Position numbers and translations under genes: made by a program
Assembly (NCBI GenBank): GCA_938036315.1
Contig: CALHPK010000001.1
Span: 144,109-208,108 of the forward strand
Source: an uncultured bacterium
GTDB taxonomy: Bacteria; Calescibacteriota; Calescibacteriia; Calescibacteriales; Calescibacteriaceae
Direction of reading: 5' to 3'
DNA: 64,000 nt
The notes under the pieces: generated by a model
The model's database searches: none
Told to the model about the DNA's origin: nothing
The model's input: only the letters and a program-made list of their open reading frames with translations
Shown here: piece by piece, positions 4,830 through 63,690 of the stretch
How positions within the stretch are numbered: position 1 is the stretch's first letter
Layout of the letters: each line of letters opens with the position of its first letter

Positions 4830-6515
4830 ATGGAAAAGATAGGACAAATTCTTGAGAGGTTAGGAGTCTCTCCCGAGAAGATCAAAGAGGCTCTATCCAT
4901 ACAGATGGAGAAAGGGGGAAGACTGGGAGAGATACTTATTAGAATGGGAGTTATAAACGACAGCATACTTGCAGAAGCTCTATCAATACAGCTTAACCTA
5001 TCTCTAAAAAAAACAATATCGAAGGAAGAAGTCGCTGAGGATATGTCATCTCGTTTCCCATCACATGTAGTAAAAGAAAAGAAATTTGTAGTCCTAAAAA
5101 ACCCAAATTCCGATGTGGCAGCAGTAGCAGTTGCAGATCCAACGAAAATTGACATAATACTTGATCTTCAGAAAATTTACAAAAAAGCACTGAAAGTTTT
5201 CTGCGCTCCACAGAGCGAAATAGAAAGAATCATAAATGAGATATACGGATTTGGTGCAGGAATAGAGGTATCAAAAGAGGTCGAAAAGGCAGAAGAAATA
5301 TTTGCAGCAGAAATAGAGGAGACAACTAAAGATATTCTCGAAGAAAAAGGCGATGCTCCAATAATAAGGTTCGTTAACGCTTTATTCTTTCAGGCTGTCA
5401 GACAAACTGCTTCTGATATCCATATAGAACCTGCAGAAAAAGAAACATCTATACGTATGAGGATTGACGGTGTTTTACACGAAGTAATAAAGATCAGCAA
5501 GAACCTACACGAACCGATAGTCTCAAGAATAAAAGTAATGTCCAGACTCGACATAGCGGAAAGGAGAATTCCCCAGGATGGTAAAATAAAGCTCAAAGTG
5601 GCAGGGAAAGATATAGATGTTAGAGTATCTACTCTGCCAACGGTCTTCGGTGAAAGAGTTTCTCTGAGAATTCTTGATAGAACCGCAACTATTCTCAAAA
5701 TTGAAGAACTCGGAATGGAAGAAGATATTCAGGAGAAAATAAAGAAGTTAATCAGAAAAACCTATGGTATGATACTTATTACTGGGCCAACTGGTTCCGG
5801 TAAGACAACGACTCTGTACGCATGCCTTTCTGAAATAAACTCCCAAGAAATAAATATAATAACTATAGAAGATCCGATAGAATACCAGCTGAAGGGAATA
5901 AACCAAATTCAGGTGAATCCCAAGGTAGGTCTTACCTTCGCAACTGGTCTGAGATCTATCTTGAGACAGGATCCAGATGTTATAATGGTTGGAGAAATAA
6001 GAGATAGCGAAACAGCATCTATAGCAATCCACGCTGCACTAACTGGACACCTTGTCCTATCGACTTTACACACAAATGATGCCCCATCTGCAATAACAAG
6101 ACTTATTGACATGGGAATAGAACCATATCTTATATCCTCTGCAGTGTTCGCAACACTTTCCCAGAGATTGGTCAGAAAAATTTGCACAAACTGTATCTTC
6201 CCCTATGAACCAGACCCAAGAGAATTAGAGATACTGGGACTTGCCAGGGAACAACTCCCAGATGGAGTTCTATTCAGAGGTCGCGGTTGCAGAGATTGTC
6301 TAGGAACAGGTTTCAAAGGAAGAATAGGAATCTTCGAGCTCTTCCTTATAGATGATGAAATAAGGGAATTGATAAATGAAAAAGCTGATTCTATGAAGCT
6401 AAAAACAATCGGGATATCAAAGGGTATGAGAACACTTCGAGAGGATGGAATTCTCAAAGTAATAAAAGGTATAACAACCCCCCAAGAAGTAGCCAGAGTA
6501 ATTCAAGAAGATTAA
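4830..6515 (+). CDS. Type IV pilus / type II secretion ATPase, PilB/GspE family
   Basis: The N-terminal region looks like a T2SSE_N domain. Walker A is GPTGSGKTTTLYA, with Asp and His boxes present. A C-terminal CxxC...CxxC zinc finger is present (CTNC...CRDC). Confidence 0.85.
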   Translation: MEKIGQILERLGVSPEKIKEALSIQMEKGGRLGEILIRMGVINDSILAEALSIQLNLSLKKTISKEEVAEDMSSRFPSHVVKEKKFVVLKNPNSDVAAVAVADPTKIDIILDLQKIYKKALKVFCAPQSEIERIINEIYGFGAGIEVSKEVEKAEEIFAAEIEETTKDILEEKGDAPIIRFVNALFFQAVRQTASDIHIEPAEKETSIRMRIDGVLHEVIKISKNLHEPIVSRIKVMSRLDIAERRIPQDGKIKLKVAGKDIDVRVSTLPTVFGERVSLRILDRTATILKIEELGMEEDIQEKIKKLIRKTYGMILITGPTGSGKTTTLYACLSEINSQEINIITIEDPIEYQLKGINQIQVNPKVGLTFATGLRSILRQDPDVIMVGEIRDSETASIAIHAALTGHLVLSTLHTNDAPSAITRLIDMGIEPYLISSAVFATLSQRLVRKICTNCIFPYEPDPRELEILGLAREQLPDGVLFRGRGCRDCLGTGFKGRIGIFELFLIDDEIRELINEKADSMKLKTIGISKGMRTLREDGILKVIKGITTPQEVARVIQED

Positions 6516-6636
6516 CCCACAAGATGAAATTTAAAAGCAACTTGGCAAACACTCTCATTATGACAATATGACTATAAAATCCTAATCCTAAAAAGACTGC
6601 AAAAACAATTGAGCTCTCAAATAGATAGAAATTGAT

Positions 6637-6672
6637 ATATCGAGTATGAGCCCAATATCGAGTATGAGCCCA
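6637..6672. repeat. Perfect tandem 18-bp direct repeat (atatcgagtatgagccca x2) in the pilB-atpA intergenic region
   Basis: Read directly from the sequence. Confidence 0.7.
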
Positions 6673-6839
6673 AAAAGCTTATCAGTGTAAGCCAAAAAGT
6701 CCCAGCAAGTAGTACCGAGATGAGAATCTACCTTAAATTATAAGAGTGAACAAAAAAACTTGTTTTTACATTCGTCTATAAAAAATAACCTATAGAAAAT
6801 AGAAATTGAGGAAAAAATAAGAACTGGGGAGTAAACGCT

Positions 6840-8366
6840 ATGATAGGAGCAGATGAAATATCTCAGATAATAAAGCAGAGAATAAAGGAGGTTGAATTTG
6901 AGGCTAAATTTGATGAGATAGGAATCATCACATATGTCGGAGACTACATCATAAGAGCTTACGGGTTGACCCAAGTTATGGCGGGTGAAGTTGTTGAAAC
7001 TCAATCAGGGCAGAAAGGGATAGTTCTGAATCTCGAGGAGGAATCGGTTGGTATAGCAATTATGGGGAACATTGAAAATGTAAAGGAGGGGGATGTAGTC
7101 AGAAGGACGGGGAAATTGTTTGAAATTCCTGTGGGCAAGGCGGTACTTGGGCGTGTCATAAACGCAATAGGAGAGCCAGTTGACGGTCTTGGCGACATAA
7201 AGTATGAGGAGACCAGACCCGTAGAGGTGAAAGCTCCGGGTGTCGTTATGAGACAGCCCGTCCGCGAGCCCCTCCAGACCGGCATAAAGGCAATAGACGC
7301 AATGATCCCAATAGGTAGAGGTCAGAGAGAACTTATAATAGGGGATAGACAAACAGGAAAAACAACAATTGCAATAGATACTATAATCAATCAGAAATAT
7401 GCATCCCCTCCTGTTTACTGCATCTACGTAGCAATAGGACAAAAACTACAATCAATCGCACAGATTGTAAGTACATTGAGAGAGAACGGGGCGATGGAAT
7501 ACACAACGGTTGTTGCCGCATCAGCTTCTGAACCTCCTACTCTTCAGTATGTAGCTCCATATGTAGGTTGCACAATCGGAGAGTATTTCAGAGATAATGG
7601 TATGCACGCTCTGATCATCTACGATGATCTAACAAAGCATGCACAGGCTTACAGAGCTCTGGCACTACTCCTCAGAAGACCCCCTGGAAGAGAAGCATAC
7701 CCGGGGGATGTTTTTTATCTGCACTCACGCCTTCTTGAAAGAGCTGCAAAGCTCTCAGATAAATACGGCGGAGGATCTCTAACAGCTCTCCCAATAATAG
7801 AAACCCAAGCTGGAGACGTCTCCGCTTACATTCCAACGAATGTAATATCCATAACAGATGGTCAAATATACCTTGAGCCGGAACTTTTCTACGCAGGAGT
7901 TAGACCAGCTATAAATGTAGGAATTTCCGTCTCACGCGTTGGAGGAAATGCCCAAATAAAAGCTATGAAAAAAGTCGCTGGAATGCTTAGATTGGAACTC
8001 GCTCAATACAGAGAGCTTGAGACTTTCGCTCAGTTCGGCTCCGATCTTGATCCCGCAACTCTCAGACAAATCGAAAGAGGTAGAAGGCTCACAGAAATCC
8101 TAAAACAAGAACCCCGAAAAGTCCTTCCCGTTGAAAAGCAAATAGTAATAATTTACGCTGGAACTCGTGGATATCTTGATAAATACCCTGTTCGCCTGTG
8201 CAGAAAATACGAAGAAGAACTATACAAATTCCTTGATTCAAAATATAGCAACTTACTTCAAAAAATAAGAGAAGAAAAAGAATTAACTCCTGAGATAGAA
8301 GAGGAAATTAAAAAAGCTCTCTCAGAATTTGATGAGTTCTTCTCCTCCTATGCTAAATCAGCATAA
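6840..8366 (+). CDS. atpA: F0F1 ATP synthase subunit alpha
   Basis: [19 protein letters not shown] is the Walker A motif, [48 protein letters not shown] is the alpha-subunit signature, and the 508 aa length fits. Confidence 0.93.
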
Positions 8367-58023: not shown

Positions 58024-61000
58024 TTAAAACACTTTTTTCTTTCTCTTTCGCAAAAGCAAGATCAAAGGCAAAGCAGAGATAAAGATAAGGTAGCCAAAAC
58101 CAGAAACTGAACAACCAAATTTTGAAGTAAGTTCTTGATCTTGATCTGAAGTGAATTCAGTTTGATCAGTTTGAGATGTGCCAAAGTACTGCGGAGCTCC
58201 ACCGCCACCGCCTCCACCACTTCCCGACAAAACTCTAACTGGAGTGCTTCTGTGTGTCCAGGTCCCATCTCCTAACTGCCCCCACGCATTCCACCCCCAG
58301 CACCAAAGTGAATTATCTGTCTTTACAGCACAGGTGTGTTCCCCTCCCAAAGAAACTTGTGAAACCCCTTGTGTTATCTGCACCGGGGTGTTTCTGTCTT
58401 GAGTTGTCCCATTCCCTAACTGTCCGAAGTAATTCTCCCCCCAGCACCACAGTGAACCATCTGTCTTTATCGCACAGGTGTGCCACCCTCCCAAAGAAAC
58501 TTGTGAAACCCCCGTTGCCATTATCTGCACTGGAGTGTTCTTGTTTTCATTTGTACCATCTCCTAACTGTCCGCGGTTATTACTCCCCCAGCACCAAAGA
58601 GAACCATCTGTCTTTACAGCACAGGTGTGAAAAGCCCCCAAAGAGACTTGTGAAACCCCCGTTGCCATTATCTGCACAGGAGTGTCCCTATAATATACAC
58701 CTGTCCCGTCTCCTAACTGTCCAGACCGATTATCCCCCCAGCACCAAAGTGAACCATCTGTCTTTACAGCACAGGTGTGCCACCACCCCAATGAAACTTG
58801 TGAAACACCCGTTGCCATTATCTGCACTGGAGTGTACCTGTTTGTCCAAGTCCCATCTCCTAACTGACCGAATTCATTCCACCCCCAGCACCAGAGAGAG
58901 TTATCTGTCTTTATCGCACAGGTGTGCCACCACCCCAATGAAACTTGTGAAACACCCGTTGCCATTATCTGCACTGGGGCGCTACTGGGTGCAGTTGTAC
59001 CATTCCCTAACTGCCCGTATTCATTCCTCCCCCAGCACCAGAGGGAGTTATCTGTCTTTACAGCACAGGTGTGATAACCCCCCGAAGAAATTTGTATAGC
59101 TCCCTCAAAGTATATTGATGAGGTGGTTGCTGATATTATATTTGAGTATGCTGTGTTTCCTGTTGAGTTGAAGGCATATACCCTGAAATAGTAGGTAGTT
59201 TTTTCTTGAAGTGATGTTATATATCCTTCTGTTGTGTTTGCTGAGAAAGTTTGTATTTGTGGATTTGAAAATAAAGAATCAGTTGAGACTTCGACAACAA
59301 ACCCTTGTTCGTTTGGAGAGTTATCCTGCCATCTTAATCCTACTGTATCAGCTGATACGAAGAAATAAGTGAGATTAGAAGGAGCAGAACAGGGCTCAAA
59401 CCCTTCGTCTATCCCTCCTGCGCAGTTATTATCAATTCCATCACATACTTCAGTCTGCCCCGGATTTATCGAAGAGTTTGAATCATCACAATCCCCAGGA
59501 GATAAAACAGCATATGTAGAGTTATCAGGATATGGATCAGTACAGGATACTTGAGAGCCCCCCACAGGATAATATCCATCAAAATCTGCATCCTTGTACC
59601 AAATAGTCCCAGGATTCAGATTAGCATTATTGTCATCACAATCTTCAGGAGATAAAACAGCATATGTAGAGTTCTCAGGATATGGATCAGTGCAGGATAC
59701 TTGAGAGCCCCCCTCAGGATAATATCCATCAAAATCTGCATCCTTGTACCAGATAGTCTCAGGATTCAGATTAGCATTATTGTCATCACAATCCCCAGGA
59801 GATAAAACAGCATATGTAGAGTTCTCAGGATATGGATCAGTGCAGGATACTTGAGAGCCCCCCACAGGATAATATCCATCAAAATCTGCATCCTTGTACC
59901 AGATAGTTCCCGGGTTTACATCCGGATTAAGGTCATCGCAATCTTCTGGCTTTGAAACAGATGTAAATCCTGCTGGCATAGTATTGGCACAGGTAGAAAC
60001 TGATGTCGTCCAAGTATCGGAATCTCGATCTTCCCAAAACCAAGTCTCTATATGCCCTGAGCAATCATTATCTTTCCCATTGTTGCAGTTCAGAGGAGCT
60101 CCAGGGTATATACTTGCTACACTATCGTCGCAATCCAAAAGTGTTATTGTTGTAAGGTTATATGGTGATGTTGGTCCACAAGCCACTTGCACCGCACCAT
60201 CTGTGTAACCATCAGAATCCGCATCTTTGTAGAATACCAATAATACCCCTTCATCTATTTCTCCATCGCAGTCGTTATCTATTCCATCACAAATTTCTGT
60301 TGCTCCCGGTTTTATGTTTGGATTGTTATCGTTACAATCACCAACCATTGCATACAAGACATATCCTTGTGGTTGCAAGCAGGATATCCGCGTTGTCCCA
60401 TCTGTGTAGCCATCAGAATCGCTGTCTTTGAACCATACTGTATTTGGATTTATCTCCGCTCTCTCATCATCACAATCTTGTGAATTTGAAACATAACCCT
60501 GTGGTTGCGTGCAAGCTTCTGTCACTGAACCAGGATTACCATAACCATCTGAATCTTTATCTTGATAAAACGTTAACTTCACACCTTCATCTATTTCTCC
60601 ATCGCAGTCATTATCTATTCCATCACAAACTTCTTCCTTTGGCACACACACTATCTCACCTTCCTTGTTTTCCTTCTTTATCTCTACCTTCTTCTCAAAA
60701 ACTGTCTCGGCTCCTTCGCTGTCTCTTACCACTACTCTTAATACATATTCCCCACCATCTGCAGTCTGAGGAACCTTTACAACCGCTGTCGCTCCATAAG
60801 GTGTTATCCAATCAAATTTCACTCCATCTTTCGTTATCTCCCAAGCAAACGTAACATCGTCTCCGTCCGGTTCATTCACTACCGCAGATGCTACAAATTC
60901 TCTCCCTATCCATATACCCCCTGTTGTACCTATCTTTATAACCCGTGGTGCTCTGTTCTCTTTCTTTACTTCAATCGTGGTTGAGACTGTGTCTTTGTTC

Positions 61001-63690
61001 CCTCCCGAATCCTGAGCTTGGAGCACCAAAAGCGCCGTCTTCGCACCTTGCGGAACTTGTATCTCAAACTCTTTCTCCGCTTTCCCTCTTTCCAAAATTA
61101 TAGAACCTGAATCAGAATATCCCCAATCCGTTACTGAAAGACTGTAATTTAAAAAACTTGAATCATCTGAAAACTCAACCTTTAATTTTGCTCTCCCCCC
61201 CGCTTTTGCTTGTCCTTTCTGGATTATCTTTATCAAGGGTGAGGCATCTTCTATTTCCAAAGTTATGTCAACCGAAGCAGTTGAACCTTTCTCCTTTGTC
61301 TGTATCTCTCTTTCTACTCTAACACCCTTGTAACTTGCATAAATTTTTACTTTTGTGTTAGGTGGTGCCTCGAGTTTGAACTGCCCCCCTGAATTTGTGT
61401 AGTCAACCTCTCCAAACTCCGTTTCTACCCTCACCCCTGGTATGTGATTCCCTCTTTTTGATTGAATAGTCCCTTGAACCCATGCAGGGCGAGTATCTAT
61501 CTCCTGCTCTGACCATACACACTCCGTCCCCTTTGCCTCGTATTCCTTCTCGTAAATCTCTTGCGTTGTAGATGTTTGGTATATAAACTTTACTTTGTAT
61601 CTGTATCTCCCTTCTTCTGATTTCTTCGCCCTTCCTCCTCGAACCTTAAAAAATCCATCTTCATCCGTAAAAACTGGAGACCTATCTCCAACTATGACTG
61701 ATACTCCCCTCAATCCTTTCCCTTCTTTATCTCTCACTTGCCCTTCTGCACATACCTCAACATATTCAAAGTTTGCACCCTGACAGGAAACTTGACTGTC
61801 CTCTGGCTTTACCCTGACAACTTCTGTTCTCCCCTCTGTTGAGCCATCCGGAAACTTTGCTATGTATGTGATTTTCACGTCCTCTGTTTGTGTAGGTCTT
61901 GGTATAAAAACTTCAAAATCCCCTGAAGATTTTGTTTTTGTGTTGTTCCCTCCAACGAAAACTTCTACCCCCTCTGCAGGTTGTGAATTTACAAACACCT
62001 TACATCCAACTTTCAAAGGAGAGAGATTTATTGAAAATTGACAGGTTTCAGCTGTTATATCTTTGTCAACATTTAAAGTTTTTTGTGCTTTGTAAGTTCT
62101 CCCGTCTTTTTCGGTAGAAATCGTAATAGTAATGTTTCCACCCCTTGAGATTAAACTGAAATTTCCAGATGAGTCAGTTTTTGTTGCCTTCCCTTCTGAT
62201 GATACAACATTTGCGTTCTGTATAGGATTACCTTCCTCATCCTTCACAAAGCATGAAACTGAAAACATTGAAGGCGGTGACAGAGTTGGACCTTCATAAC
62301 AACCTTCTTTCTTATCTCCAACTGAAAATTCCTTTACCCCTGAAATCTCTCCGTAGGTGCCATATATCCTTCCATTCCAAGCATAAATCCTGTCTGTCGC
62401 AAAAATCCTTATATTAGAATTAGAAGGAACATATAAGATATACTCGCCATTTTCGTCAGAAATTGTGTATGTTGACCTATATCCTGAGCATATCCATTGA
62501 CCTACAATCTCACCGTATCTTCTCAACTCCGAAGCCGTTACATAAACTCCACTCACTGGTTTCCCATCCGCTCCTATTACCTTACCTTTTACACATACAT
62601 TCCTTGGCAATGTTGGACACCCAAAACTCCACCAAGATGTGTGAGTTAGACTCATCTCCCCGTATGCGACCTCATCTAAAATTCCGTCCCCGTCCGTGTC
62701 TTCTTTGAATATCACAACCTTTGCTTCTTTATGCCTTTTCCATATTCCATCCTCAGCATCATATGAATACAAAGGGATAGAATTTGCTCCCCTTTTGTAT
62801 GCCTCTAAAGCGTCTTTTTGTAAACTTTCTGGCAATCTCCGCATCACCATTACTGGATTTTCTGGAGATGCCACCTGCACATCTTTGCCACCCTGCTTAA
62901 AACTTAAAGAAGTCCATCCAAGTGCTTTAAGTTCAACTTCTTCAATTCCTGAAATCCCTAAGATCCCCTTTGCCTCTTCATCTTGTGCTTTAAAATCCCC
63001 TGGAAAGCTATTTAAATTTCTGTCAGGGTCTCCAACTGTTATTTCTACTGTGATTTCTCCTTCCTGCTGTTTTGTAAAGAAAGATTTTATCTCGTCCAAC
63101 ACAGAAGAAGGTGATGCTCTTCCTGTTACTATTCTTCCTGTTACTAATCTTCCTGTTACAAAGGCTTCTCCCGAATCTGTTCTCATTGTTTCTGTTCCAT
63201 CAGGGTTTTGAGTATATCTACCTGTTACTAATCTTCCTGTTACGAATCTTCCCGTTACAAAGTCTGCTTGAATATCCACATTTATTGCCCTGCCTGTTAT
63301 AATTCTACCTGTTATAATTCTACCTGTTATAATTCTACCTGTTATAAGTCTGCCTGTTACAAAATCAGAGCGTATTACTTTATGAGAAGGAGCAAAACCT
63401 TCTTGTTCGACAGTGATTTTTATATCTTTTCCTTCTTGGATTGGGACTTCTGCTGAAAATACCCCGAACTCATCTGTTTTGGTTTCTTGAACTTTGCCAG
63501 CAGATTCAATTTTTACATTTGCCGAGATCAGGGGCTTTCCTTCTATGGAGTCCTTTACTGTTCCTGAAACAATTATGGATGTAAGTTCCTTTTCCTCTGC
63601 TTCATTTTTTACTTTACATAAAGAAGCACAAGACGAAAGGAAGACAAAGACGAAAAAATAAAGAATCAATAAACGTAGAATATTATTCAT
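58024..63690 (-). CDS. Giant (1888 aa) mosaic cell-surface lipoprotein: CarboxypepD_reg-like domains, (I/V)TGR pentapeptide repeats, Ig/PKD-like domains, MopE/Myxococcus-type Cys-rich repeats, FN3, 6-blade RCC1 propeller, poly-Gly linker, Cys-containing C-terminal sorting signal
   Basis: A single uninterrupted ORF with signal peptide and lipobox (FLSSC). Recognisable repeat signatures are CDGIDNDCDGEIDEG (x3), YKDADFDGYYPVGGSQVSCTDPYPENSTYAVLSPGDCDD (x3), HTCAVKTDNSLWCWG.N..GQLG.GT (x6) and an FN3 block (LRWQDN...YYFRVYAFNSTG). The C-terminus reads SGSGGGGGGGAPQYFG...FGCSVSGFG + hydrophobic helix + RKRKKKVF. Confidence 0.85.
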   Translation of the reverse strand: MNNILRLLILYFFVFVFLSSCASLCKVKNEAEEKELTSIIVSGTVKDSIEGKPLISANVKIESAGKVQETKTDEFGVFSAEVPIQEGKDIKITVEQEGFAPSHKVIRSDFVTGRLITGRIITGRIITGRIITGRAINVDIQADFVTGRFVTGRLVTGRYTQNPDGTETMRTDSGEAFVTGRLVTGRIVTGRASPSSVLDEIKSFFTKQQEGEITVEITVGDPDRNLNSFPGDFKAQDEEAKGILGISGIEEVELKALGWTSLSFKQGGKDVQVASPENPVMVMRRLPESLQKDALEAYKRGANSIPLYSYDAEDGIWKRHKEAKVVIFKEDTDGDGILDEVAYGEMSLTHTSWWSFGCPTLPRNVCVKGKVIGADGKPVSGVYVTASELRRYGEIVGQWICSGYRSTYTISDENGEYILYVPSNSNIRIFATDRIYAWNGRIYGTYGEISGVKEFSVGDKKEGCYEGPTLSPPSMFSVSCFVKDEEGNPIQNANVVSSEGKATKTDSSGNFSLISRGGNITITISTEKDGRTYKAQKTLNVDKDITAETCQFSINLSPLKVGCKVFVNSQPAEGVEVFVGGNNTKTKSSGDFEVFIPRPTQTEDVKITYIAKFPDGSTEGRTEVVRVKPEDSQVSCQGANFEYVEVCAEGQVRDKEGKGLRGVSVIVGDRSPVFTDEDGFFKVRGGRAKKSEEGRYRYKVKFIYQTSTTQEIYEKEYEAKGTECVWSEQEIDTRPAWVQGTIQSKRGNHIPGVRVETEFGEVDYTNSGGQFKLEAPPNTKVKIYASYKGVRVEREIQTKEKGSTASVDITLEIEDASPLIKIIQKGQAKAGGRAKLKVEFSDDSSFLNYSLSVTDWGYSDSGSIILERGKAEKEFEIQVPQGAKTALLVLQAQDSGGNKDTVSTTIEVKKENRAPRVIKIGTTGGIWIGREFVASAVVNEPDGDDVTFAWEITKDGVKFDWITPYGATAVVKVPQTADGGEYVLRVVVRDSEGAETVFEKKVEIKKENKEGEIVCVPKEEVCDGIDNDCDGEIDEGVKLTFYQDKDSDGYGNPGSVTEACTQPQGYVSNSQDCDDERAEINPNTVWFKDSDSDGYTDGTTRISCLQPQGYVLYAMVGDCNDNNPNIKPGATEICDGIDNDCDGEIDEGVLLVFYKDADSDGYTDGAVQVACGPTSPYNLTTITLLDCDDSVASIYPGAPLNCNNGKDNDCSGHIETWFWEDRDSDTWTTSVSTCANTMPAGFTSVSKPEDCDDLNPDVNPGTIWYKDADFDGYYPVGGSQVSCTDPYPENSTYAVLSPGDCDDNNANLNPETIWYKDADFDGYYPEGGSQVSCTDPYPENSTYAVLSPEDCDDNNANLNPGTIWYKDADFDGYYPVGGSQVSCTDPYPDNSTYAVLSPGDCDDSNSSINPGQTEVCDGIDNNCAGGIDEGFEPCSAPSNLTYFFVSADTVGLRWQDNSPNEQGFVVEVSTDSLFSNPQIQTFSANTTEGYITSLQEKTTYYFRVYAFNSTGNTAYSNIISATTSSIYFEGAIQISSGGYHTCAVKTDNSLWCWGRNEYGQLGNGTTAPSSAPVQIMATGVSQVSLGWWHTCAIKTDNSLWCWGWNEFGQLGDGTWTNRYTPVQIMATGVSQVSLGWWHTCAVKTDGSLWCWGDNRSGQLGDGTGVYYRDTPVQIMATGVSQVSLGAFHTCAVKTDGSLWCWGSNNRGQLGDGTNENKNTPVQIMATGVSQVSLGGWHTCAIKTDGSLWCWGENYFGQLGNGTTQDRNTPVQITQGVSQVSLGGEHTCAVKTDNSLWCWGWNAWGQLGDGTWTHRSTPVRVLSGSGGGGGGGAPQYFGTSQTDQTEFTSDQDQELTSKFGCSVSGFGYLIFISALPLILLLRKRKKKVF
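58260..59208 (-). repeat. Six tandem ~156-bp RCC1-blade coding repeats with high DNA-level identity
   Basis: Repeated TPVQIMATGVSQVSLG.WHTCA.KTD.SLWCWG.N..GQLGDGT blocks. The antisense ORF 58254-59099 is an artefact of this periodicity. Confidence 0.8.
59484..59935 (-). repeat. Three tandem 150-bp near-identical coding repeats (50-aa Cys/Asp-rich modules)
   Basis: Units start at 59485, 59635 and 59785 and differ by only a few nt. Each encodes WYKDADFDGYYP.GGSQVSCTDPYP.NSTYAVLSP.DCDD.N. Confidence 0.85.
63118..63360 (-). repeat. Coding tandem pentapeptide repeat (I/L/V)(I/V)TGR, including 15-bp perfect DNA tandem cctgttataattcta x3-4
   Basis: Protein reads FVTGRLITGRIITGRIITGRIITGRAI ... FVTGRFVTGRLVTGRY ... 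FVTGRLVTGRIVTGR. The DNA at 63293-63352 is a perfect 15-mer tandem. Confidence 0.8.

Follow-up and report, generated by a model that had tools for sequence, protein, structure and literature searches.

The 64-kb stretch of DNA analyzed here (the window), from contig CALHPK010000001.1 of a hot-spring bacterium related to Calescibacterium, encodes a giant surface protein of 1888 residues. Residues 110–191 of the protein, near its N-terminal anchor and encoded by the minus strand, carry an array of five-residue units ending in Thr-Gly-Arg (TGR units). The TGR motif is previously undescribed, yet of a familiar class, that of short in-frame repeats in bacterial surface proteins. The units form three blocks (A, B, and C), which are located at loop or linker positions of a transthyretin-like domain and of the GAIN-like domain that follows it. 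Comparison of codons across genomes indicates an ancient peptide motif whose amino acids are maintained by purifying selection. It further indicates that block A and, less markedly, blocks B and C were recently expanded or homogenized in this genome alone among those compared. The explanation that we favor, with a confidence slightly better than even, is that the array is a lineage-restricted, selected peptide micro-repeat at three loop or linker sites, tuning the protein stalk or presenting arginines. Most of the uncertainty lies in the functional half of this explanation, in which the biochemical role of the blocks is inferred.

The translation of the minus-strand open reading frame (ORF) at 58024..63690 confirms an earlier observation of a five-residue TGR array near the N-terminus of a giant protein (Table 1). 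The original count of about 13 consecutive units was too high. Translation and a regular-expression scan identify exactly 11 [FLI][VI]TGR units, in three blocks of 5, 3, and 3, which are split by spacers of 9 and 18 residues. Similarly, the four units described as perfect at the DNA level reduce to three exact copies of CCTGTTATAATTCTA followed by 10 nt. Together they form a perfectly periodic tract of 55 nt (3.67 units), which is the top-scoring short-period tandem repeat of the window. Tandem Repeats Finder (TRF) detected three period-15 arrays of 4.5, 2.9, and 2.8 copies, whose matches are 96%, 89%, and 96%, respectively. In the coding register, the codon sets are fully identical in two units only. 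The protein contains 11 TGR tripeptides, all inside the array, compared with 0.57 expected from its composition, and none of 20,000 shuffles reached this number (maximum 6). All 11 matches to [ILVFMA][ILV]TGR in a six-frame translation of the window are units of the array. The 15-mer, allowing up to two mismatches, has four matches against 0.26 expected.

Table 1 Features of the giant surface-protein gene and its TGR array (positions within the window).
Feature	Position	Strand	Residues	Description or basis
Giant surface-protein gene	58024..63690	-	1–1888	ORF list and translation; Pfam; NCBIfam
Signal peptide with lipobox	63628..63690	-	1–21	...FLSSC; read from translation
Transthyretin-like/CarboxypepD_reg domain 1	63379..63570	-	41–104	Model positions 2–64 of 82
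Block A	63289..63363	-	110–134	5 units, FVTGR LITGR IITGR IITGR IITGR; regular-expression scan
Perfectly periodic 15-nt tract	63293..63347	.		3 × CCTGTTATAATTCTA + 10 nt; candidate slippage substrate
Spacer 1	63262..63288	-	135–143	AINVDIQAD, 9 residues; family alignment
Block B	63217..63261	-	144–158	3 units, FVTGR FVTGR LVTGR; regular-expression scan
Spacer 2	63163..63216	-	159–176	YTQNPDGTETMRTDSGEA, 18 residues; family alignment, AlphaFold2
Block C	63118..63162	-	177–191	3 units, FVTGR LVTGR IVTGR; regular-expression scan
GAIN_B/ZU5-like (MAIN-type, FAM171-like) β-sandwich, rest	62614..63117	-	192–359	

The positions of the blocks in the protein scaffold were derived from an alignment of the N-terminal regions of 15 family members, four of them TGR-bearing and 11 TGR-less. 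Block A separates the last β-strand of domain 1 from the one before it. The AINVDIQ segment of spacer 1 aligns with the last β-strand of the transthyretin-like domain (family pattern V.V.LKPV), and its counterparts are ISVDIGAS in ortholog P0065 and QISLELT in ortholog P0001. Of the 82 positions of the CarboxypepD_reg hidden Markov model (HMM), the window protein matches no further than 64 and P0065 no further than 60, and P0019, a TGR-less family member, is matched over positions 1–81. The displaced last strand, together with the shortened HMM match, argues that block A is inserted in the last hairpin of domain 1. In the alignment, block B is the linker from domain 1 to the GAIN/ZU5-like domain. 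The NPDGTETM segment of spacer 2, which contains an NPDG turn, aligns with the first hairpin of this next domain (family pattern PDG...l.iP). Block C stands in place of the family loop SL.D..G.PV.G, leading from the first hairpin to the EITVGDP strand.

An AlphaFold2 model based on the 15-sequence alignment has a mean predicted local distance difference test (pLDDT) score of 73.7 and a predicted template modeling score of 0.74, and both domains are predicted confidently. A model from a two-sequence alignment (pLDDT 39) was unusable. Block A is a coil with pLDDT of 33–47. Blocks B and C form strands around the NPDG hairpin with pLDDT of 45–63 overall, below 50 in the strand of block C, and spacer 2 includes strands 158–161 and 167–170. 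A solenoid, one of the folds proposed originally for the array, was not built by AlphaFold2, which rendered the TGR blocks as low-confidence coil and strands. Spacer 2 (YTQNPDGTETMRTDSGEA) resembles the hairpin of pyrroloquinoline quinone (PQQ)-type blades and the designed "Cake" proteins (YAINPDGTEKWRFKTGKAI), at 3–5 bits for each match. We did not take this as evidence of homology to PQQ-propeller blades, since the full-sequence E-value of 2.9e-10 for Cake is a sum of such 3–5-bit matches over nine identical blades. The likeness is probably a convergent NPDG hairpin and hints at a β-hairpin only.

The claim that the TGR pentapeptide belongs to no recognized repeat family holds in all the resources searched. 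Neither the whole protein nor the isolated 89-residue TGR segment matches a repeat family in Pfam or NCBIfam, and literature text searches on the peptide strings returned nothing relevant to the motif and no precedent. When 1.84 billion representatives were searched exhaustively with HMMER, 62 matches were obtained. They include the public copy of the window protein itself (P0003) and two more proteins, P0025 and P0057, that are true relatives with TGR units. The others are about 45 large surface proteins that have only the downstream domain in common with the query, and unrelated low-complexity translations. Matches of HVTSR, LVSSR, LITDR, LQTGR, and LVTGT to the repeat part of the profile were set aside, as they look like translated simple-sequence repeats and are unrelated. 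Word-indexed protein searches gave, among the matches listed, P0001 and an unrelated protein with six copies of LVTGR (P0002).

The nearest homologs of the protein come from metagenome-assembled genomes (MAGs) of Candidatus Calescibacterium and from hot-spring metagenomes. Yellowstone streamer communities at ~80 °C have yielded populations of Calescamantes (PMC4791363). The three-block layout is common to orthologs down to ~30% identity, and P0065, which is ~30% identical overall to the window protein, still carries TGR units. The numbers of units differ, from 5, 3, and 3 in blocks A, B, and C of the window protein to 2 (IITGR IITAR), 2, and 3 in L005 and L001 (P0001), and 1 (LITAR), 2, and 3 in L006. 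In P0065, P0025, and P0066, block A counts 2+4 units (ITAR MITAR, then three times MVTGR and MVTAR) and is accompanied by two units (and VAGR) in block B and two in block C. P0057 has one degenerate unit (VITSR) in block A, three units in block B, and none in block C. L002 and L004 lack block A and have degenerate units in block B (FIIGR FIAGR) and block C (MITGR FAASG MMTGR). No TGR-bearing homolog has lost block B, not even the distant P0057. Spacer 2 is conserved in orthologs and shortened to TPEG in P0065.

Two of the orthologous loci appear to be disrupted. The gene of L002 and L004 (Candidatus Calescibacterium sp. PSS.bin.4, 5980–7260) contains a +1 frameshift in a run of A close to the N-terminus and loses its frame again ~1.2 kb further on, in addition to having degenerate units and no block A. 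It may be a decaying pseudogene, or homopolymer sequencing errors may account for the breaks. Being 100% identical over the 1451 nt aligned, L002 and L004 do not count as independent. L003, from a single-cell co-assembly of Candidatus Calescibacterium nevadense (~1545), lacks 332 nt of the otherwise near-identical L006 (6195–6526). Missing from L003 as a result are the last part of domain 1, all of the TGR region, and the beginning of the GAIN-like domain, and the reading frame is shifted. The gap is not a slippage product, as its junction is not between TGR units, and may be a real deletion or an artefact of single-cell amplification or assembly.

We surveyed the codons of 36 units from five genomes, in which the unit consensus is hydrophobic-[I/V]-T-[G/A]-R. 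Threonine and glycine are each encoded by four codons, and arginine by AGA, AGG, CGG, and CGT. The invariant codon positions are the first and second of Thr, the first of Gly, and the second of Arg. The sole amino-acid change within T-G-R is the replacement of glycine by alanine, found in 6 of the 36 units. The scrambling of synonymous codons around a retained peptide argues that the peptide is under purifying selection. Units of the orthologs differ by 4.5–5.0 nt per 15 nt within a genome and by 4.4–5.9 nt between genomes. Since they are equally diverged in both comparisons, the units are long-lived, with no rapid turnover. The window differs in this respect, with a divergence among its own units of only 2.75 nt per 15 nt and TRF matches of 89–96%, compared with 77–81% in the orthologs. 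The 55-nt perfect tract is the outcome of the recent expansion or homogenization of the blocks in this genome, and it suggests that copy number changes by replication slippage or by unequal exchange.

The motif shares properties with several known systems. In-frame tandem peptide repeats are established in bacterial surface proteins, for example, the staphylococcal serine-aspartate (SD) repeats (PMC3324548), and have been reviewed together with other coding repeats (PMC3899988). Like these variable-number tandem repeats (VNTRs), the TGR arrays are short in-frame DNA repeats in a large envelope protein, with copy numbers that vary between lineages and slippage as the likely mechanism. However, they are very short (2–5 units) and split over three fixed structural positions, and their peptide is under strong purifying selection, with scrambled codons and no variation between near-identical strains. 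The (I/V)TGR(I/V) pattern at the junction of two units is identical to that of strand A of CarboxypepD_reg/transthyretin-like domains ([IV][ST]G[RTK][VI]), as in FLVTGRVEN and YQITGRVIN of family members. The resemblance fits a β-strand propensity of the units, and strand A is a possible evolutionary source of them. Nevertheless, the TGR blocks are not at the start of a domain, no such domain follows them, and the likeness covers 5–6 residues. Elastin-like (VPGXG) and spider-silk (GPGXX) repeats share with TGR units the five-residue period and a turn-capable central glycine, whereas TGR units have no proline and no second glycine and form far shorter arrays.

The favored explanation places the micro-repeat in an anchor-proximal module that consists of the N-terminal lipobox, the transthyretin-like domain, and a GAIN_B/ZU5-like (MAIN-type) domain. 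Block A extends the last hairpin of domain 1, block B links the two domains, and block C replaces a loop after the first hairpin of the GAIN-like domain. The number of units drifts between species, probably by slippage or unequal exchange. We hypothesize that the β-branched, arginine-bearing units form short β-strand extensions through which the membrane-proximal stalk is tuned in length, stiffness, or stability. It is also possible that they offer an evenly spaced row of arginines to an anionic envelope or matrix polymer. In neither case would the units act as a rapid on/off or antigenic switch. Several points weigh against this explanation. Because the confidence of AlphaFold2 is low in the blocks, the case for β-strand extensions is weak, and the idea of an arginine ladder or ligand has no direct support. 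The respective shares of slippage and gene conversion are read from sequence patterns. Block A is dispensable in some orthologs (no units in L002, one degenerate unit in L006), and the units could thus be merely tolerated. In addition, the two syntenic contigs of the same species, L009 (ENA ERZ6863514) and L010 (SRA ERR9287617), break in the C-terminal part of the giant gene, before the array is reached, so that rapid length change may yet occur in this genome. The breaks suggest that internal repeats (RCC1, 147/297 nt; MopE, 150 nt) fragment short-read assemblies. Both contigs were reached through members of the MurJ cluster; exact look-ups for the giant protein, CinA, MurJ, and Mur ligase returned none.

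The perfect in-frame tract had suggested a contingency locus, a hypervariable VNTR in which frequent slippage generates length variants of the surface protein, for example, in evasion of phages or predators. The tract remains a plausible substrate for slippage, as a perfect 55-nt in-frame repeat without equal among short-period repeats of the window, and block A ranges from 0 to 5–6 copies among orthologs. The instability of bacterial VNTRs climbs steeply with copy number, however, and the tract has only 3.67 perfect copies. Its 15-nt period, a multiple of three inside a coding region, makes on/off switching of expression impossible and provides no phase switching. A comparison of copy numbers between strains, suggested as a check, found differences between orthologs and no change within two near-identical sets: the three independent near-identical MAG copies P0025, P0065, and P0066 have identical arrays, the near-identical pair L001 and L005 has identical unit counts, and the DNA-level repeats of both sets are imperfect. 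Ortholog units that are as diverged within as between genomes, with their codons scrambled, also speak against hypervariability. With so few copies and an in-frame period, the tract would probably show no more than length polymorphism at a low rate, as opposed to phase switching, and we consider a contingency-type locus unlikely. The blocks could instead be neutral low-complexity filler, that is, slippage products tolerated in surface loops with no function of their own. Such filler would be expected in loops and linkers and in segments of low predicted confidence, and it would agree with the variable counts, with the loss of block A in some orthologs, and with TGR-less family members that have the same scaffold. 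Nevertheless, T, G/A, and R are strictly retained in the 36 units, while synonymous change is free and includes switches from AGR to CGN codons. The retention reaches orthologs of ~30% identity, and the three positions are kept in distant homologs. Motif decay (FIIGR, FIAGR, FAASG) is restricted to L002 and L004, where the gene is frameshifted and may be a pseudogene. Neutral filler is therefore, in our judgment, an improbable description of the blocks.

The five-residue period and the conserved hydrophobic position, which could face inward as a central residue, recall the pentapeptide repeat family (PF00805, Rfr fold). The array could be a divergent member of the Rfr/MfpA/Qnr type, a right-handed quadrilateral β-helix or mini-solenoid with the spacers as extruded loops, and loops do interrupt the helix in Qnr proteins. 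However, the pentapeptide families PF00805, PF13599, and PF13576 match neither the whole protein at E ≤ 1 nor the 89-residue segment at E ≤ 10, and a phmmer sequence search of the PDB found no pentapeptide-repeat chain at E ≤ 10. Inspection of the 36 units did not reveal the A(D/N)LXX signature, which has a central L/F (i), a small residue at i−2, and D/N at i−1. When the units are placed with a hydrophobic residue at i, which a single register allows, they have G at i−2, R at i−1, and I/V at i+1, and no D/N. One coil of the helix needs four units, and two or more coils would be expected, whereas at most five units are contiguous in the window protein and 0–4 in orthologs, and total numbers of ~4 to 11 units are not multiples of four. 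AlphaFold2 builds no helix, and the spacers correspond by homology to strands of the scaffold instead of loops. We regard a solenoid as hardly credible. The regular spacing of arginine and threonine in an extracytoplasmic segment, next to a domain that probably cleaves itself, would also suit a ladder of processing or modification sites that tunes the stalk, recognized by a trypsin-like protease, by O-glycosylation, or by arginine modification. Such a ladder is very unlikely, as no protease, glycosyltransferase, or modifying enzyme is encoded among the neighboring genes, the upstream synteny of the gene is not conserved in orthologs, and no literature precedent was found.

The GAIN-like domain that hosts blocks B and C comprises residues 144–359 (62614–63261, minus strand), and its predicted fold is a GAIN_B/ZU5-like β-sandwich. 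A putative autoproteolysis motif, H350-T351-S352 (~62635–62643), is located in the turn before the last strand (SWWSFGC), between strands 303–313 and 317–323 of the AlphaFold2 model. The motif coincides with the most conserved pattern of the family, THFSWWN.D, in which the column reads HFS, HFT, HAS, or HMS in most members and HTS in the window protein and its Calescibacterium orthologs. Judging from the motif and the model, the H-T-S site is predicted to self-cleave. The module of a transthyretin-like and a GAIN-like domain is common to the ~45 large lipoprotein-type surface proteins retrieved by the exhaustive HMMER search. The family alignment profile matches the ectodomain of eukaryotic FAM171A2 (PDB 9y6n, chain 9y6n_A) over both domains, the transthyretin-like domain and the β-sandwich, with an E-value of 5.1e-8, and that of FAM171A1 (PDB 9y63) with an E-value of 6.3e-4. 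Unlike the window protein, the FAM171 proteins (PF10577) have no TGR units, and single-sequence scores against PF10577 (15.2 and 19.8 bits) are below the gathering cutoff of 31.2 bits.

Microbial GAIN (MAIN) domains were described in a recent preprint as cleaving at HF|S into fragments that stay associated, in proteins composed of a signal peptide, an ectodomain, the MAIN domain, and an anchor at the C-terminus (Brogan & Rudner 2026, 10.64898/2026.05.12.724683). The domain studied here shares with GAIN and MAIN domains the HX(S/T) motif in a β-turn before the last strand. It differs from MAIN proteins in its inverted order, in which the lipobox anchor is followed by the transthyretin-like domain, the GAIN-like domain, and then an ectodomain of ~1500 residues. 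The X residue is threonine (HTS), whereas it is hydrophobic in the MAIN motif; the preprint describes no TGR insertions, and self-cleavage is only predicted here. A more specific version of the favored explanation casts the TGR blocks as extra strands or clamps, forming a tunable element of a mechanical or thermal kind, in an N-terminally lipid-anchored MAIN release module of inverted topology. The number of units would then determine how long or how stable the stalk is that carries the non-covalently attached ectodomain of ~1500 residues, and thereby the force or temperature at which the ectodomain is shed. We speculate on this version in spite of its low probability. If the blocks do modulate a release module, the homologs would provide a natural length series, from 0 to ~11 units, for force- or heat-triggered ectodomain release.

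As a repeat alone, the TGR array is a modest curiosity of one poorly known hot-spring lineage, selected at three loop positions. It shows by example that perfect in-frame repetition of DNA is not enough to make a contingency locus. The context may outweigh the repeat itself, as the apparent self-cleaving domain of GAIN/MAIN type has an orientation opposite to that in the bacterial report.

The whole protein is composed, from the N-terminus to the C-terminus, of a lipobox signal, transthyretin-like (CarboxypepD_reg) domains, MopE motifs, a fibronectin type III (fn3) domain, RCC1 blades, and a C-terminal tail. Pfam identifies five CarboxypepD_reg stretches (PF13620, 106 bits compared with a gathering cutoff of 32.3 bits), five MopE metal-binding motifs, one fn3 domain, and six RCC1 blades. 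A match to the radical-SAM-associated lipoprotein family TIGR04134, located in a later transthyretin-like domain, was dismissed because it scores 19.5 bits against a cutoff of 39.8 bits and is irrelevant to the repeat. Cys21 is presumed from the lipobox to be the lipidated membrane anchor, and lipobox-type N-termini are also present in orthologs and most family members. In the public collection, the identical protein P0003 forms a cluster of one and is encoded on a 208-kb contig. The neighboring genes are housekeeping ones (CinA, MurJ, Mur ligase, AAA+ ATPase, and TyrRS), and the GC content of the window is 38%.

The C-terminus looks like a sorting tail, composed of a glycine run followed by GCSVS, a hydrophobic segment, and RKRKKK. 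The ~30 C-terminal residues of the window protein (58024–58120, minus strand), GCSVSGFGYLIFISALPLILLLRKRKKKVF, are similar to the C-terminus of P0065, GCSYTNSYLILVLIIYAVVLLLIRRAK. Both tails contain a cysteine motif, a hydrophobic helix, and a basic end, resembling sorting signals of the exosortase/MYXO-CTERM type. The only database match of the tail is to Heimdall-CTERM, below threshold (E = 0.06). With a lipobox at one end and such a tail at the other, the protein may be anchored at both ends.

The region of MopE motifs contains a 150-nt tandem repeat of 2.8 copies with 96% identity (59483–59907, minus strand), which encodes three near-identical modules of 50 residues (TIWYKDADFDGYYP.GGSQVSCTDPYP.NSTYAVLSP.DCDDNNANLNP). 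This repeat is a second recent duplication in the TGR gene, at the scale of a domain.

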